A DNA stretch of 64,000 nt from a virus (IMGVR_UViG_3300025529_000004:5870-69869), one strand, 5' to 3'. Shown: positions 40,425-55,600, numbered from the stretch's first letter. Notes: generated by a model from the letters alone, not told the origin. A program made the numbers and translations.

Positions 40425-40583
40425 CTATTGTGCCACTATAAAGTATTCATATATTGTTCCTGTTCTAATATTGTATTTCTTTATTTTGCCATCCTCTGTT
40501 ACTTCATAATATAAATCATCATCATCCCAATCCTGTTCCAAGTTTTCGATAATCCAATTAACATCCACTTTTAATCTCTCCAT
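40425..40583 (-). CDS. small acidic hypothetical protein (52 aa, not in ORF track)
   Basis: MERLKVDVNWIIENLEQDWDDDDLYYEV...FIVAQ*; overlaps the ftsK-like stop. Confidence 0.5.
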   Translation of the reverse strand: MERLKVDVNWIIENLEQDWDDDDLYYEVTEDGKIKKYNIRTGTIYEYFIVAQ

Positions 40584-42772
40584 TCATTCAAAGTTTCTTC
40601 ATCAGCCGTAATCACATAATTCCTTCCTTCTTTCGTAAGCCAGCCCTCATCACATAATTGTTTCATTAAGTCTGATACTATGTTAATTCTTATACCCATC
40701 GCTTTACGCAATTCTCCTATTCTTGTTTCTCTTGTAGTAGCTATTATTCTTTTTAGTTTATCAATTGGTTGCTCTGAGGAAGTTATTTCAATTTCTTTTT
40801 CAAAATTGTTAGATGTGCTATTAGGTAACAATTTTTTAATATCTTTAATGATTTGCTCTTCTTCCAGTTCATCTGTGGAGATAATCGGAGATTGAAATCT
40901 TATAAATTCGTCTTCGTACCCTTCTAACATAGCAACCCCATCCCCCATGCCAGTTAAATTATAGGGAATTCCTTTTCCAAAAACAGTCCTATAATCACTG
41001 GATGTTTTTAATTTAAACCCTATGACTGATGGCAAATTGCTTTTTAAAACGCTTGTTACAATTTTCTCAAGTGGTTTTTGAGTAGCTATAATCAAATGGA
41101 TTCCACAAGCTCTTGCTTTTTGACTTAATCTGACTATATATTCTTCAATTTCTTCATTTACCATTAAAAGATCGGCATACTCATCAATCACTAATACAAT
41201 ATAAGGCATTGTTTCTTTTTTCTTTTTATTATAAGCATCAATGTTTTTACATCCATTGGCAGCCAGCACACTATATCTCTCATCCATTTGTTCACATAGC
41301 ATATTTAATAATTGACAGGCTTTTCGAGCATCTGTAACAACTTGTTTTACTTGTGGAAACCCATTAAATTGTGAAAATTCCACCATTTTTGGATCAATTA
41401 GATACATATTCAGCATTTCTATTGGGACATTTAAGATTAAAGATAATAACAATTGATTTAAAAAAACTGATTTTCCAGATCCGGTTGTTCCGGCAATAAG
41501 AAGATGTCTCAATTTTGCTAAACAACCAAAAACAAATTCGCCATTTGTGTCTTCACCAATCACAAAAGGGATTTCATTTTGTTCTTTAAATATTTGAAAC
41601 TCATCTGATTCTAATATATCTCGCAAATATACAACTTCTCTTTTATCTGATGGTAAAATAACATCAACAGTATTTGGTTGATTACCTATTTCAATTGATA
41701 CGTTTTTATTCCCTAAACAAGCTTGAATATCAGGAAGCTTTTTAATTATTTTGGAGTAGTTTGTATCTTTTGGTATCTTAAATTGGATTTTAACTGTAGT
41801 GGCTCCTTTGAATGAATCGTTGACAACAAGCCTGTTTTTAACTACACCAGACATAATAAATGCGGAATTGACTTCTTTAATTAATTCTTTTGGTACAGTG
41901 CGATCAACATTTAGATTATTGGGCATTAGAGAAATAAGATTCTGAAGTAATTGATTCTGTTCTAAGATTTGATCTTGAGTCGAGTTAGAGGAATTACTTA
42001 ATACTTTGTGATGTTTAGGTATGAGGAAGGAGTATAGTTCTTCTTTGGACAGTATATTGTCATTGGTTTGAATAATTCGTTTATTAAAATTTTGTAAAAA
42101 ATTTTCTTTATTATCGACTCTTTTTAATTTCAAAGAGTTGAACAAGTCAATTTGTCTAAAAGAGCCTTGTATTTTATCTTCAAAATCATGAATATTCCCT
42201 TCAAATATGACCATTCTACATTCAAAATGATATAATTCACTCAATATTTTATCTTCTATCTCTTGAATCGGCGTTCTTTTAACATCTGATTTCAAAATAG
42301 TGTTGAAAAATCCTATCATTTTGGTTTGAATCGTTCTTAACACTTTATTGTCAATTGGTTCGTCATTTCCTTTTAAATATTCTTCGTATAGATCAATCGC
42401 TTTATATCTCCATCTTGGGCTAGATTTCTTAACTAATAATTGAAAAATAAACGAGTAATCTTCAAATTGATTTAATGTCGCTATAATATCTGTTTTATTT
42501 CTTGTATCTAATGGGAAAAATGATGATTTTTCTAATGAGATTGCATATAAATGCGCTTTTTGAAAATCTTGATGAATTAGTGGATCTTCTTTTAAAGAAT
42601 AGTTGTTAAATTTATGAAAACGGGGAGTCATCATAATGATTTTTCTTTGTTCTTGTAATTTAACAATTTCGATTCCGTAAACATAATCAGATATATATTG
42701 AGATTCCAATATGGTATCGATAATTTCTTCATCAAATGTATTTATTTCATAATGATTATGATCCATCTTCAT
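40571..42772 (-). CDS. FtsK/SpoIIIE-family ATPase
   Basis: HLLIAGTTGSGKS, IDPKMVEF, VIDEYADL, GIHLIIATQKP; C-terminal wHTH. Confidence 0.9.
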   Translation of the reverse strand: MKMDHNHYEINTFDEEIIDTILESQYISDYVYGIEIVKLQEQRKIIMMTPRFHKFNNYSLKEDPLIHQDFQKAHLYAISLEKSSFFPLDTRNKTDIIATLNQFEDYSFIFQLLVKKSSPRWRYKAIDLYEEYLKGNDEPIDNKVLRTIQTKMIGFFNTILKSDVKRTPIQEIEDKILSELYHFECRMVIFEGNIHDFEDKIQGSFRQIDLFNSLKLKRVDNKENFLQNFNKRIIQTNDNILSKEELYSFLIPKHHKVLSNSSNSTQDQILEQNQLLQNLISLMPNNLNVDRTVPKELIKEVNSAFIMSGVVKNRLVVNDSFKGATTVKIQFKIPKDTNYSKIIKKLPDIQACLGNKNVSIEIGNQPNTVDVILPSDKREVVYLRDILESDEFQIFKEQNEIPFVIGEDTNGEFVFGCLAKLRHLLIAGTTGSGKSVFLNQLLLSLILNVPIEMLNMYLIDPKMVEFSQFNGFPQVKQVVTDARKACQLLNMLCEQMDERYSVLAANGCKNIDAYNKKKKETMPYIVLVIDEYADLLMVNEEIEEYIVRLSQKARACGIHLIIATQKPLEKIVTSVLKSNLPSVIGFKLKTSSDYRTVFGKGIPYNLTGMGDGVAMLEGYEDEFIRFQSPIISTDELEEEQIIKDIKKLLPNSTSNNFEKEIEITSSEQPIDKLKRIIATTRETRIGELRKAMGIRINIVSDLMKQLCDEGWLTKEGRNYVITADEETLNEWRD

Positions 42773-45515: not shown

Positions 45516-46664
45516 TTATTTTTGGTATTTCTTTAGAATGTCGGAAATGTTCTTCTTTTGGGCTTGTTTTTTGATTTGTATATCTGTTTGTTTAAACTGG
45601 ATTGAGTGTGGTGCAGATATGACTTCGGATAAAATTTCTGATTGTTGCAATGTTTTATTCTCCATTTCCTTTAACCGTTCTTTGTTGAATTGTAAACCTG
45701 TAAGAATTGAATAAACGTCTCCTTTATTTTGATGATAATAACCTTCAAATACATCTAACGGCTGATTGCTGAAATTGGATAAAATCGATGAAATATTGAT
45801 GTATTGCATTAATTGTTCTTGAGCATCAAATATAAGCCCATACCGTATGATTTTGTCTGTATTAGGTTTAGTAAACAATGACTTATTCCACGATTTAACA
45901 ATTTGTTCACCAACATATTCAGAGGTTAAAGTGAATCCTTCCTTTATGTTTGATATGTTAACGTGAGATATATTTGCGAATCCTTTTGTTCCAAATACTG
46001 TAATAAGATCTTTCTGATCAAAATTACCATGCTTAGAGTACATTTCGGTGTGTAGTATAATGTTTAAAATTAAAGTAGAAAATGATTCATTTACATAGGA
46101 ATAAACTTTATTTTTGCTACCTAAGTGAGAAAAATTGTTGTTATCAATAGGTAGAATGCAAATATCCAACGAACTTAATTCTTTTAGGCAGTTTAAAGTA
46201 TTTAAATGTCCTATTGTTGATTCATTTATATCTGGCAATATTGGACAAGCTACTATTGTTTTATTGTCTAATTCATTGATTAACATATCAGTAATTAAAG
46301 GAGAAATCCCACTTCCAGTTCCCCCGGCTGTTGAAAAAACAACAAAAATCAATTCACTTGAAGGTTGAGAAACGTGATTTTTAATAAAATTAAGGGTTGA
46401 TTCCCAGTTTTGATTCATTAATTGAATAGCATAATCTCTTTGTTTTCCAACACCTTCAGTTCCAACGAGTTTAAGTTTCTTTTTATCATCTATGTTTTCG
46501 CAGCTGTCTAAGTCTTTTTGAGAATAATTTATTACCAATGAGCCAATCCCTTTACTTGCGAAATTGTCAGCTATACTTCCCCCTGCTTGCCCTATTCCAA
46601 TAACACTAAGCATTTTGTTCAACCCCCTCGATGATATTTTGAATTGCCTTTTCCCCAAATTCAC
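45516..46664 (-). CDS. tubZ: tubulin/FtsZ-family GTPase, TubZ-like (probable start 46613, MLSVIG)
   Basis: VIGIGQAGGSIAD and tubulin signature AGGTGSG; downstream of a wHTH gene. Confidence 0.9.
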   Translation of the reverse strand: MNLGKRQFKISSRGLNKMLSVIGIGQAGGSIADNFASKGIGSLVINYSQKDLDSCENIDDKKKLKLVGTEGVGKQRDYAIQLMNQNWESTLNFIKNHVSQPSSELIFVVFSTAGGTGSGISPLITDMLINELDNKTIVACPILPDINESTIGHLNTLNCLKELSSLDICILPIDNNNFSHLGSKNKVYSYVNESFSTLILNIILHTEMYSKHGNFDQKDLITVFGTKGFANISHVNISNIKEGFTLTSEYVGEQIVKSWNKSLFTKPNTDKIIRYGLIFDAQEQLMQYINISSILSNFSNQPLDVFEGYYHQNKGDVYSILTGLQFNKERLKEMENKTLQQSEILSEVISAPHSIQFKQTDIQIKKQAQKKNISDILKKYQK

Positions 46665-49646: not shown

Positions 49647-49700
49647 TAAAATAAGCATTTTATTTTCAAAAATTCAATGGATTAAAAGGAGGAATTTTCT

Positions 49701-50327
49701 ATGGAAGTTTCTATTACACGCGCTCTTAGTGAGTTGAAATTGTTGGATAAAAGAATCAATCGTGCAATTAATGAAGCGATTTTTGCTGGATATCTTGATG
49801 GAGACAAACCAATGGCAGGGTTTCAAAATAAAGAAGAAATTGAAGCTAGAGCAAAATCTGATTTTCAATCGGTTAAAGATTTGATTAAAAGGCGCAACGC
49901 TATTAAGTCTGCTATTGTTGTTTCAAATGCAACTACAGATGTAGAAATCGCAGGTAAGACAATGACTGTAGCAGAAGCAATTGAACGAAAAACTTCCATA
50001 GAATATGAGAAAAAATTGCTTCAAAAATTAAAAAATACATATACAACCATTGTTTCTTTAATTGAAGATAAAAATGAAGAAGTTAAAGAACGTTTAGACA
50101 GACAATTAGAGGGATTTACAGAGAGTGCCAAGAAAGCAACTGATTCTCAAGTTATTCAAACGTTCATTGATAACTATTTAGCAAAGAATGAATATAAATT
50201 TGTCGATCCTCTTAATATCAAGAAAGTTATTGAAGAATTAACTAAAGATATTGAGGATTTTGAGTCGGAAGTTGATTTTGCTTTAAGCACAAGCAACACA
50301 ATCACAAAAATTACAATTCCTGATTGA
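49701..50327 (+). CDS. coiled-coil protein resembling the DIP1984-like family, followed by a structured RNA
   Basis: RBS AAAGGAGG; ALSELKLLDKRI N-terminus, SNATT...TMTVAEAI middle, IEDFESEVDFALSTSNTITKI C-terminus. Confidence 0.75.
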   Translation: MEVSITRALSELKLLDKRINRAINEAIFAGYLDGDKPMAGFQNKEEIEARAKSDFQSVKDLIKRRNAIKSAIVVSNATTDVEIAGKTMTVAEAIERKTSIEYEKKLLQKLKNTYTTIVSLIEDKNEEVKERLDRQLEGFTESAKKATDSQVIQTFIDNYLAKNEYKFVDPLNIKKVIEELTKDIEDFESEVDFALSTSNTITKITIPD

Positions 50328-50360
50328 TTTTAGAAAAAAGTGATATAACGATCTAAAGAT

Positions 50361-50672
50361 ACTTGTTAGTTAGTCGAAAACCATGAAACTAAACACCTTC
50401 GGGGGTAGGTTAATCCCCCACTTACACTTATTCATTTTGGAATAATACATAGTGAATGGTATTAGCAAATTGACACTATATCTAGTCATTTACTACAGAC
50501 GGCTAAAAGCTCAAACTTCAAATTCCAAAGTTCAAGTGTTAAGTTTCAAGACTCTTTAAGTTCAAAGTTTAGTTTTTAAAGATAACAAGCTTTTTAAAAT
50601 CTAGGGGTAAAGGTTAATGAGTGGTTGTTTATTGGCTCGATTGGTTTCCTCCTAGCTGACTAGCTAACAAGT
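50361..50672 (+). ncRNA. putative ~310-nt structured ncRNA with a central heptamer array
   Basis: 15-bp closing helix ACTTGTTAGTTAGTC / GACTAGCTAACAAGT (one G-U); GAAAACC/GGTTTCC; GGGGG/CCCCC hairpin; CTAGG/CCTAG; phased AA(A/G)NYYY heptamers from 50506. Confidence 0.7.
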
Positions 50673-50679
50673 TTAACCG

Positions 50680-50722
50680 TGATGTGAGTAGTATTTTCTT
50701 GGTGCAACTCCAAGGCGCATCA
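50680..50722 (+). ncRNA. tRNA-like minihelix (acceptor stem plus T-arm)
   Basis: 7-bp TGATGTG/CGCATCA stem stacked on CTTGG-TGCAACT-CCAAG (7-nt loop). Confidence 0.5.
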
Positions 50723-50771: not shown

Positions 50772-51041
50772 ATGAAAAAAGCAGAATTTGTAGGATTGGT
50801 AGCTGAACAATTAGGTAAAACAAAAAAGGAAACTGGAGAAATTCTTGATGTAGTATTTGGTACTATTGAAAAAGCATTGGTTGAACATGGTGAAGTGCCA
50901 TTGGGTGATTTGGGTAAATTTGTTGTCAAAGAACAAGCAGGTAGAACAGGTAGAAATCCACAAACTGGTGAACCAATTGATATTCCTGCAAGGAATGTCG
51001 TCAAATATAAAGCCTCTAAACATGCTAAAGAATTAGTTTAA
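50772..51041 (+). CDS. hup: HU-family DNA-binding protein (YonN-like)
   Basis: MKKAEFV...LGKFVVKEQAGRTGRNPQTGEPIDIPA. Confidence 0.95.
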   Translation: MKKAEFVGLVAEQLGKTKKETGEILDVVFGTIEKALVEHGEVPLGDLGKFVVKEQAGRTGRNPQTGEPIDIPARNVVKYKASKHAKELV

Positions 51042-54705: not shown

Positions 54706-54710
54706 AATAA

Positions 54711-55600
54711 ACCACAGAGGATAGAATAGGCAGCTATCGCCCTAGATGGAGATGCGTGAGTGCCGACACGCCTGCGGTATGAAGTGACGTAGGGATAGCG
54801 TCACGTTAATAAAGAAAGTCCATCGTTTTGATGTTGTGGTAAGGTCGCCCAACGTTAAATAAAGAAAGTACCAACTAAAAATGTTTGAGGGTTTGGCAGT
54901 TGTCTCCGACTAATAATACAACTGAAAATGTTATTAAGTTTGGGTCATAGCACCCTGCGAGACATAGAATCTTGCAATAATTCTTACACGTTTATATGAA
55001 GATCCGGTTTTCGGTCATCTGTTAAAATCGATGATTCAATTGCGATTTGCTTATAGCTTGTCGCCTGCAAAGGTTTCGGACGCTGAACCCGTTAAATCAG
55101 CGTTCAATATATATCAATTGCGGTGTGTATCTTCGGAACACACTTCGTAGTCTGGATGCGTCTGGGCTACGGTCAGCGCGTATGTTTGCGGACATGCGTG
55201 TATAGAGTCGAGATGCGTCTCGACTCTATTTATAATTACGTTTTTCCTGTATCGATTGGTGTCTACTTAATTGAAGAATCGAGGATAGCTTGGTCGCCTA
55301 TTGTAAAATGTTCCCCGCCCGCCATTAAATTAATGGGTTGTGCAGGAGGGTCAATAGGATTAAGTAGATACCAGTGGGTGCAGGAATGCTGATGTAACTT
55401 TTAGGCGTTTTAATATTGTCACTCGTTCCGAACGAGGAGTTACATTTCGGACAGTAAATCCTGTGCTTTTTATCTAAGTGATCAACCGCAGATTGCTCAC
55501 AAGCGCTGCGTATGCACATTATTCGCTAAAAATTTAATTCGTTATTTTTTTATTCGCTAGGTTTTGTTTCGCTAGTCGTCTACCTCAGACGACATTTTTT
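54711..55600 (+). ncRNA. putative large (~890 nt) highly structured non-coding RNA
   Basis: GC-enriched; more than 10 helices including a 12-bp perfect stem (55202-55229), a cUUCGg hairpin (55123-55143) and a 14-bp long-range helix (55258-55271/55359-55372); ends in terminator GTCGTCT/AGACGAC plus T-run. Confidence 0.7.

Follow-up and report, generated by a model that had tools for sequence, protein, structure and literature searches.

A helical-bundle protein gene and a pseudoknotted RNA with a seven-nucleotide repeat form a two-part module in phages and bacteria

The locus

This work concerns a protein gene and a structured RNA that lie side by side on the + strand of a 64,000-nucleotide (nt) stretch of viral DNA (IMGVR_UViG_3300025529_000004:5870-69869), hereafter referred to as the window, with positions counted from its first letter. 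The gene (49701-50327) is an open reading frame (ORF) of 208 amino acids that belongs to PHROG 1491, and its product is modeled as a helical bundle, one end of which carries a small beta-sheet. A Shine-Dalgarno-like AAGGAGG can be read at 49686-49692, 8 nt ahead of the ATG. The RNA spans 50361-50672, from the outer pair of its closing helix P1 to the partner of that pair, and begins 34 nt after the stop codon. A covariance model of the family (R1, described below) matches 50357-50678 with 206.4 bits (E 2e-62) and finds one copy only in the window; the nhmmer score of this copy is 198.9 bits. The 444 nt between the gene and the HU-family gene that follows (50772-51041) contain only ORFs of 35-45 amino acids, in agreement with a first-pass annotation of this DNA, which had seen no useful ORF in the core of the RNA.

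That annotation had described a 15-pair closing helix with one U-G pair, four pairings within it, and seven contiguous heptamers at 50506-50554, and all of these are present with the coordinates and letters it gave. The more degenerate heptamer copies that it placed past the core are also there, as four more units reaching to about 50590. By itself, the closing helix is not beyond chance: inverted repeats of its quality with loops of 200-400 nt number 14 in the window and 0-8 in block shuffles, and the minimum free energy (MFE) z-scores are modest (+ strand, -3.4; - strand, -2.3). The case rests on the comparison with other loci.

Gene and RNA across genomes

I collected 160 further homologous loci, giving 167 in all, and took the 800 nt located 3' of each stop codon. 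A profile was iterated with nhmmer from the window element, and a covariance model was built from 26 diverse copies. With nhmmer, the element is found on the gene strand downstream of the gene in 165 of the 167 loci, against two opposite-strand matches. Full-length copies, of which there are 116 among the nhmmer matches, measure 245-392 nt. Across the family the element begins a median of 20 nt past the stop codon, with stop-to-P1 distances of 7-34 nt. The covariance model gives 102 matches in 100 sources, every one on the gene strand. This linkage spans proteins that are only 33-60% identical, from Escherichia coli phages to Bacillota and Sericytochromatia.

A set of 91 Bacillaceae genomes allowed presence and absence to be compared. 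The same 16 genomes carry both the protein (E<=1e-76) and the full RNA (E<=1e-56), 4-8 nt apart, while a full RNA is absent from all 75 genomes that lack the protein. The gene and its RNA make up a two-part module (49701-50672) that is kept or lost as a whole, as the first-pass annotation had supposed.

Three loci depart from the simple arrangement. One Bacillaceae genome that lacks the gene (G021, L188 1501-1625) retains a truncated RNA remnant covering model positions 134-262; it comes immediately 3' of an amino-acid permease gene, the one found beside the intact module in Bacillus safensis, and looks like a decaying locus. A Lysinibacillus genome (G003, L172 about 1501-1666) holds an orphan partial RNA, consisting of the repeat tract and the 3' domain (E 2e-19), with no gene beside it and a complete module elsewhere in the genome. 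In a locus labelled as a Parabacteroides metagenome-assembled genome (L060), tandem RNA copies at 2120-2428 and 2446-2786 follow a single protein gene.

A simple intrinsic terminator is found 3' of the element in 27 of 48 bacterial loci, including that of Bacillus safensis. With this terminator 3' of the element, and with the stop codon too close to the RNA to leave space for a promoter, the RNA is most likely transcribed along with the gene, as the 3' portion of its transcript.

Fold of the RNA

The fold was examined in an alignment of 102 sequences, fitted to the covariance model for P1 and P5. In this alignment, pairing reaches 93.7% in P1 and 99% in P5, and double-sided changes occur at all 11 pairs of P1 and at 4 of the 5 pairs of P5. 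The covariation score is 0.700, compared to 0.206 +/- 0.009 in shuffles (0 of 500 as high) and at most 0.105 with slid partners. In a plain hidden Markov model (HMM) alignment, column-pair covariation recovered only P1 and P5, because insertions and deletions misalign the arms of the other helices. I therefore employed a partner-swap test, comparing the duplex energy of each sequence's own arms to that of its 5' arm with the 3' arms of other sequences. The z-scores of P1, P2, P3, S1, S2, P5 and P6 range from -13 to -36, and none of 2000 permutations does as well, whereas three arbitrary segment pairs used as negative controls score between -1.1 and +0.3. Covariation or partner swapping thus supports the closing helix, all four inner pairings listed in the first-pass annotation, and two helices beyond these.

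The closing helix P1 pairs 50361-50375 with 50658-50672 over 15 positions, with one U-G at 50370/50663; its conserved core, 50364-50375 with 50658-50669, has a partner-swap z of -35.8. It is followed from 50376 onward by a GAAA junction, in which G50376, A50377 and A50378 are invariant in the 26-sequence seed alignment. P2 pairs 50378-50383 with 50642-50647 (own arms -5.7, swapped arms -2.1 kcal/mol, z -20.6). P3 pairs 50390-50395 with 50626-50631, in the loop of P6 (own -5.2, swapped -1.1 kcal/mol, z -22.8); compensatory examples can be read between sequences, and the pairing makes a pseudoknot with P5 and P6. An H-type pseudoknot occupies 50395-50419, formed by S1 (50395-50397 with 50408-50410, z -13.1) and S2 (50401-50405 with 50415-50419, z -25.1), and a conserved GGUUAA sits in the S2 loop of the alignment. 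The region that follows, from 50420 to about 50503-50505, is a variable expansion that is gappy in the alignment and differs widely in length among relatives; it has no conserved or significant fold (MFE z -0.74).

Past the repeat tract, a conserved junction at 50591-50605 (consensus UCGAUAAAAUC; in the window UUUUUAAAAUC) runs into the 5' arm of P5, which pairs 50601-50605 with 50651-50655 (z -21.7). The P6 hairpin (50618-50639) pairs 50618-50622 with 50635-50639 (z -13.3) and carries the 3' arm of P3 in its loop. The 3' core strand, 50642-50672, then comprises the 3' arms of P2 and P5, a conserved GCUG and the 3' arm of P1. As S1 pairs into the S2 loop, and P2 and P3 tie the 5' strand to stretches that lie within P5 and P6, the result is a core with two pseudoknots. 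Together, P1, P2, P3, P5, P6 and S1/S2 clamp both ends of a tract of about 90 nt without conserved pairing.

The same alignment identifies the folded molecule. In P1 and P5, G-U pairs outnumber A-C by 129 to 9, and at 50370/50663 U-G is the commonest pair type in the family; the folded molecule is therefore the RNA of the + strand, not DNA. The earlier claim of selection on RNA is upheld by this ratio and by the 102 of 102 model matches on the gene strand. An element acting as DNA, such as origin iterons, a packaging site or a binding array for the neighboring HU protein, might be suspected from the direct 7-bp repeats beside the HU gene (50772-51041), which resemble iteron arrays, and HU genes also occur near the module in two other phages. 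However, each G-U would be an A-C mismatch in the opposite strand of a cruciform, the model matches all lie on the gene strand (the HMM adds only the two on the other), transcription terminators follow the element in bacteria, and ordinary chromosomal sites far from any replicon function also carry it. A DNA iteron, origin or packaging site is rejected on the strand asymmetry, and I regard a DNA-level role of any kind as hardly credible.

The heptad rails

The tract held between the two halves of the core is the most conserved part of the RNA, and consists of evenly spaced units with the consensus U-Y-A-A-R-g-n. Across the 102 sequences the first five positions have frequencies of 0.87 (U), 0.87 (Y), 0.99 (A), 0.79 (A) and 0.82 (R); the g at position 6 is weak, and position 7 has no preference. 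Seven units form rail 1 (50504-50554), with invariant A at 50506, 50513, 50520, 50527, 50534, 50541 and 50548, and four form rail 2 (50562-50590), with invariant A at 50564, 50571, 50578 and 50585. These A residues are 98-100% conserved with a period of 7, and the U two bases ahead of each is nearly as constant. The autocorrelation of A peaks at lags 7 and 14. The heptamer register of the first-pass annotation is in consequence both real and conserved.

Between the two sets of conserved A residues, an 11-nt linker moves the phase by 2. In the window, the inter-rail linker with its 2-nt shift of register lies at 50555-50561, and in some relatives a hairpin is inserted here. Most sequences have a linker of 9-14 nt, and a few have one of 20-77 nt. 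The rails themselves are nearly fixed in length: of 90 copies, 69 have a rail 1 of 47 nt and 78 have a rail 2 of 33-34 nt, and the rare variants differ by one unit (40 instead of 47 nt, 26-27 instead of 33-34 nt).

No conserved pairing involves the rail in the family alignment. A 3-bp hairpin that RNAalifold placed in rail 1 is not supported, being 75% paired with a compensatory change at only 1 of its 3 pairs. Mimicry of a T-loop or tRNA by the heptads was also discarded, as the invariant U1 and A3 are unlike the T-loop pattern and no tRNA or tmRNA match was obtained.

The partner protein

The protein family comprises 2434 representatives at 50% identity, nearly all of 200-215 amino acids. 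The AlphaFold2 model of the window protein (predicted local distance difference test score 95.8) is a long, single-domain helical bundle, whose small sheet is made of both termini and a hairpin at residues 80-89. The conserved polar residues are K13, R65, K69, N76, T79, K97, N199 and T202, and by the secondary structure of the model the invariant ones fall in segments adjoining the beta-strands.

In profile searches, residues 2-206 of 208 match PHROG 1491, named 'tail fiber protein' (E 5e-69). This label is almost certainly wrong, and seemingly a propagated misannotation. In Bacillus chromosomes the gene stands alone amid housekeeping genes; the T5 copy sits among rnh, thy, promoter and tRNA genes, away from the structural genes; and the model, a 208-residue helical bundle, has no fiber-like fold. 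Many RefSeq phage records give the family this name, and one labels a member 'major capsid protein'. A pore former of the ClyA/XaxA kind was likewise rejected: the fold matches are at E about 1, and the protein is soluble and acidic, with hydrophilic residues in the 80-89 hairpin.

Two independent structure searches returned 3KDQ at the top (E 7e-4 in Foldseek; Z 9.8 in VIA, with 151 of 152 residues covered), with template-modeling (TM) scores of 0.34-0.44 and a Z that lies within the range reached by helical bundles by chance. 3KDQ is an uncharacterised Corynebacterium diphtheriae protein of the 'septicolysin'/DIP1984-like kind; an AlphaFold DB cluster named 'Septicolysin' also matches the model, at E 8e-3. 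The DIP1984 likeness given in the first-pass annotation may thus have a counterpart at the level of fold, 3KDQ being the best match, but has none at the level of sequence, where Pfam and NCBIfam return no such match: PF20935 (DUF6847) is absent at E<=0.01 for the window protein and at E<=1 for seven homologues, and none of the NCBIfam matches at E<=1 can be traced to the DIP1984 family. The alignment covers 3KDQ from end to end, and some DUF6847 genes, 6-7 of the 16 sampled, likewise have a downstream period-7 tract. They differ in that the module family is about 50 residues longer, with no sequence match and TM-scores of 0.34-0.44, and in the heptad unit, which is GUA in the DUF6847 tracts. 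The partner protein has no significant match of any kind in NCBIfam, and sequence searches of the PDB with it gave nothing meaningful.

Comparison to known systems

Neither the window copy of the element nor the copies in five homologous loci reach the gathering score of any Rfam 15 family, and at E<=10 only chance-level matches appear (at most 28.5 bits, for cut-offs of 55-120). With respect to tRNA, tmRNA and RNase P RNA, ARAGORN gives no match in the window and Rfam none on the element. The Rfam check suggested in the first-pass annotation thus returns no family for the element. No publication on the gene-RNA module was found. In my assessment the module is outside every characterised system; of its closest analogies, the TRAP array, type III toxin-antitoxin RNAs and Ro-Y RNA pairs, it fell within none in those membership tests that could be run.

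TRAP is a beta-sandwich ring of 11 subunits, around which units of the Bacillus trp leader RNA are wrapped; it recognises (G/U)AG triplets set 2-3 nt apart in a regulatory leader, and the protein is encoded elsewhere. The module recalls it in having a row of about 11 short, evenly spaced, unpaired units (7 + 4 = 11), with the ends joined by a folded core. In contrast to TRAP, its unit is U-Y-A-A-R at a strict 7-nt spacing, in a stand-alone pseudoknotted RNA located beside a helical-bundle gene. Nucleoprotein assembly in viruses offers a further parallel, as the origin of assembly of tobacco mosaic virus has a G at every third base and the N protein of respiratory syncytial virus covers 7 nt per subunit, both coating whole genomes. 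By analogy, the base periodicity of the RNA may equal the footprint of one subunit, although the module differs from these in being a short rail of fixed length in a small cellular or phage noncoding RNA. Ro60 (Rsr) and Y RNA are a protein gene and an adjoining structured noncoding RNA that occur in bacteria as well as phages and have ties to tRNA-like RNA biology. The module shares this arrangement of a conserved protein gene next to its structured RNA partner, but has no TROVE/Ro domain in Pfam and no Y RNA match in Rfam, and the rail is absent from Y RNAs.

In type III toxin-antitoxin systems (ToxIN, CptIN, TenpIN) the repeats are 34-45 nt long, and the RNA array lies upstream of the toxin gene with a terminator between the two. 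The module is similar in that a protein is paired with a repetitive RNA, in both bacteria and phages, and that one RNA could hold several proteins. Conceivably, then, it might be a toxin-antitoxin-like, abortive-infection or counter-defence pair, in which the RNA sequesters many copies of a harmful protein in the type III manner, or the phage copy serves as a decoy for the bacterial one. Such a role would suit a stand-alone two-part module with its own terminator amid unrelated housekeeping genes in Bacillus, patchily distributed (16 of 91 Bacillaceae genomes) and common in phages and phage-plasmids, with an RNA that is repetitive as in ToxI and survives only as a truncated remnant where the gene is lost. 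However, the order is the reverse of type III, with the RNA downstream and no terminator between the parts, and the repeat unit has 7 nt where about 36 nt would be expected. The fold of the protein is a helical bundle instead of the ToxN/AbiQ type, no such match being found in the PDB, AlphaFold DB or PADLOC, and the PADLOC search returned no meaningful match of any kind. The stable synteny in the Bacillus pumilus group is also unlike a mobile addiction module. I consider this explanation improbable.

A candidate ribonucleoprotein

The arrangement that I favor, with about an even chance of being correct, is a ribonucleoprotein in which about 11 copies of the partner protein are docked on the heptad rail, itself held by the pseudoknotted core. 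The copies would sit side by side, one per 7 nt, and the contact surface would be the end of the bundle that bears the conserved polar residues (K13, R65, K69, N76, T79, K97, N199, T202). The product would be a defined particle of many proteins on one RNA. Loading may possibly take place in cis, during synthesis of the protein, because the stop codon is only 7-34 nt from P1. More tentatively, and with confidence falling a little short of even, this may be an undescribed class of ribonucleoprotein, present in several bacterial phyla and in many large phages, in which an 11-unit rail of 7-nt pitch aligns a matching number of helical-bundle proteins into a ring or palisade, with a job in tRNA or translation biology or in phage-host conflict.

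The role of the particle in one of these two areas is my leading guess, because phage modules sit inside tRNA operons. In 37 of 60 viral loci, same-strand tRNA genes are located within 1.5 kilobases (kb), often starting a few bases after P1. This setting fits either shared stable-RNA processing or a role in tRNA and translation biology.

The RNA might instead not be bound by its neighbor at all, and act on a host factor or another RNA (for example as a sponge of an RNase or an RNA-binding protein, or by pairing with tRNA), or serve the upstream mRNA as a 3'-UTR (untranslated region) device, in which case the adjacency would reflect shared expression. The protein is acidic and without an RNA-binding domain, the phage modules lie in stable-RNA (tRNA) operons, A-rich single-stranded repeats are typical of sponges, and a Lysinibacillus genome has an extra partial RNA copy (rail and 3' domain) with no gene, all of which would agree with this. 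On the other hand, near-perfect linkage holds over proteins that are 33-60% identical in diverse hosts with no obvious shared host factor, the heptad unit differs between two related protein families, and seven helices with two pseudoknots exceed the needs of an mRNA stabiliser. The neighboring protein is favored over a host factor because the linkage spans E. coli, Pseudomonas, Bacillus and Sericytochromatia, because gene loss goes with RNA decay, because the rail length is nearly fixed, and because some of the related DUF6847 genes have a period-7 tract with a different unit (GUA). An RNA that acts without its neighbor is in my judgement unlikely, if worth keeping in view.

Several observations weigh against the docked ribonucleoprotein. 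The partner protein is acidic, with an isoelectric point of 5.2 (the median of the family is 5.7). It has no known RNA-binding domain, and Pfam gives no significant match. The clustering of conserved residues at one end of the bundle was judged from sequence position and secondary structure, and the count of 7 + 4 = 11 units was read from the sequence. For P2, P3, S1, S2 and P6, the evidence is the partner-swap test devised here. Finally, ARAGORN finds no tRNA or tmRNA gene in the 64-kb window, so that the tRNA link is not universal.

If the particle is real, it would be a widespread bacterial and phage RNA-protein machine that is named in no database. A strict 7-nt register of fixed length is an unusual RNA design, and the logic of one protein per unit is directly testable; since the module is present in T5 and in the Bacillus pumilus group, genetics and biochemistry are feasible in standard laboratory systems. 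The present analysis also corrects the 'tail fiber protein' label that is spreading in phage annotation, and fills an unannotated gap of about 350-500 nt in the phage records examined.

Distribution and genomic context

A tblastn search identified the gene in 750 phage records, among them those of T5 (T5.085), Bastille-like Bacillus phages, Lactococcus phage P1048, Lactococcus 949-like phages and Clostridium botulinum phage D-1873, together with phages of Pseudomonas, Vibrio, Salmonella, Klebsiella, Erwinia and Ralstonia. Among viral contigs, a scan with the single protein gave no matches, and an alignment-based scan found loci. The gene is also carried by 18 large non-mobilizable plasmids, and the module occurs in large Clostridium plasmids. 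Chromosomal copies of the gene are known from Bacillaceae, Brevibacillus, Paenibacillus, Lysinibacillus, Clostridia, Sericytochromatia and others. The module stands alone among unrelated housekeeping genes in two Bacillaceae genomes, one of them Bacillus safensis, and in the Bacillus pumilus group its locus is stably syntenic in the core chromosome.

A blastn search of the element against the phage collection gave no match. In D-1873, P1048, T5 and JBP901, an unannotated gap of 360-1230 nt follows the homologous gene, and by eye these gaps hold the same closing helix and A-rich repeat tract. The window is part of a viral record of 101.7 kb, whose closest relative in the phage collection is D-1873.

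The - strand block of the window contains genes for helicases, an exonuclease V-like protein, an FtsK-like protein and a PhuZ/TubZ-like protein. The + strand block holds a sigma-like gene, the module, HU, PhoH, an SbcD-like exonuclease, a ClpP-like protease, and terminase and portal. The last two are 6.5-8 kb downstream of the module on the same strand, and the first-pass placement of the module just upstream of the late operon is roughly right. The PhuZ/TubZ-like tubulin homologue (45516-46664, - strand) is a weak match (E 1e-8), whereas the FtsK/SpoIIIE-like gene (40571-42772, - strand) is a strong one (E 1e-201). By analogy to the Clostridium botulinum C/D toxin phages, the tubulin and FtsK genes would fit a phage-plasmid lifestyle.

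An HU gene lies near the module in the window (50772-51041), in D-1873 (L001 1687-1974) and in an SPbeta-like Brevibacillus prophage (L193 5434-5721), where the order is HU, module, YonK, YonJ, YonG. This proximity may reflect lineage synteny or a functional link.

Other RNAs were encountered in these regions. The only Rfam match in the 64-kb window is a skipping-rope RNA (RF02924) at 54710-54779 on the + strand, just 3' of the ClpP-like gene, with 47 bits for a cut-off of 36.7. In Lactococcus phage P1048, a full tmRNA is recognised by Rfam (L002 503-851, 111 bits) where the deposited record has no feature. In D-1873, the unannotated 1.2-kb gap that contains the heptad RNA also contains a drum RNA (RF02958, L001 5401-5508, 47.7 bits), about 420 nt further on.

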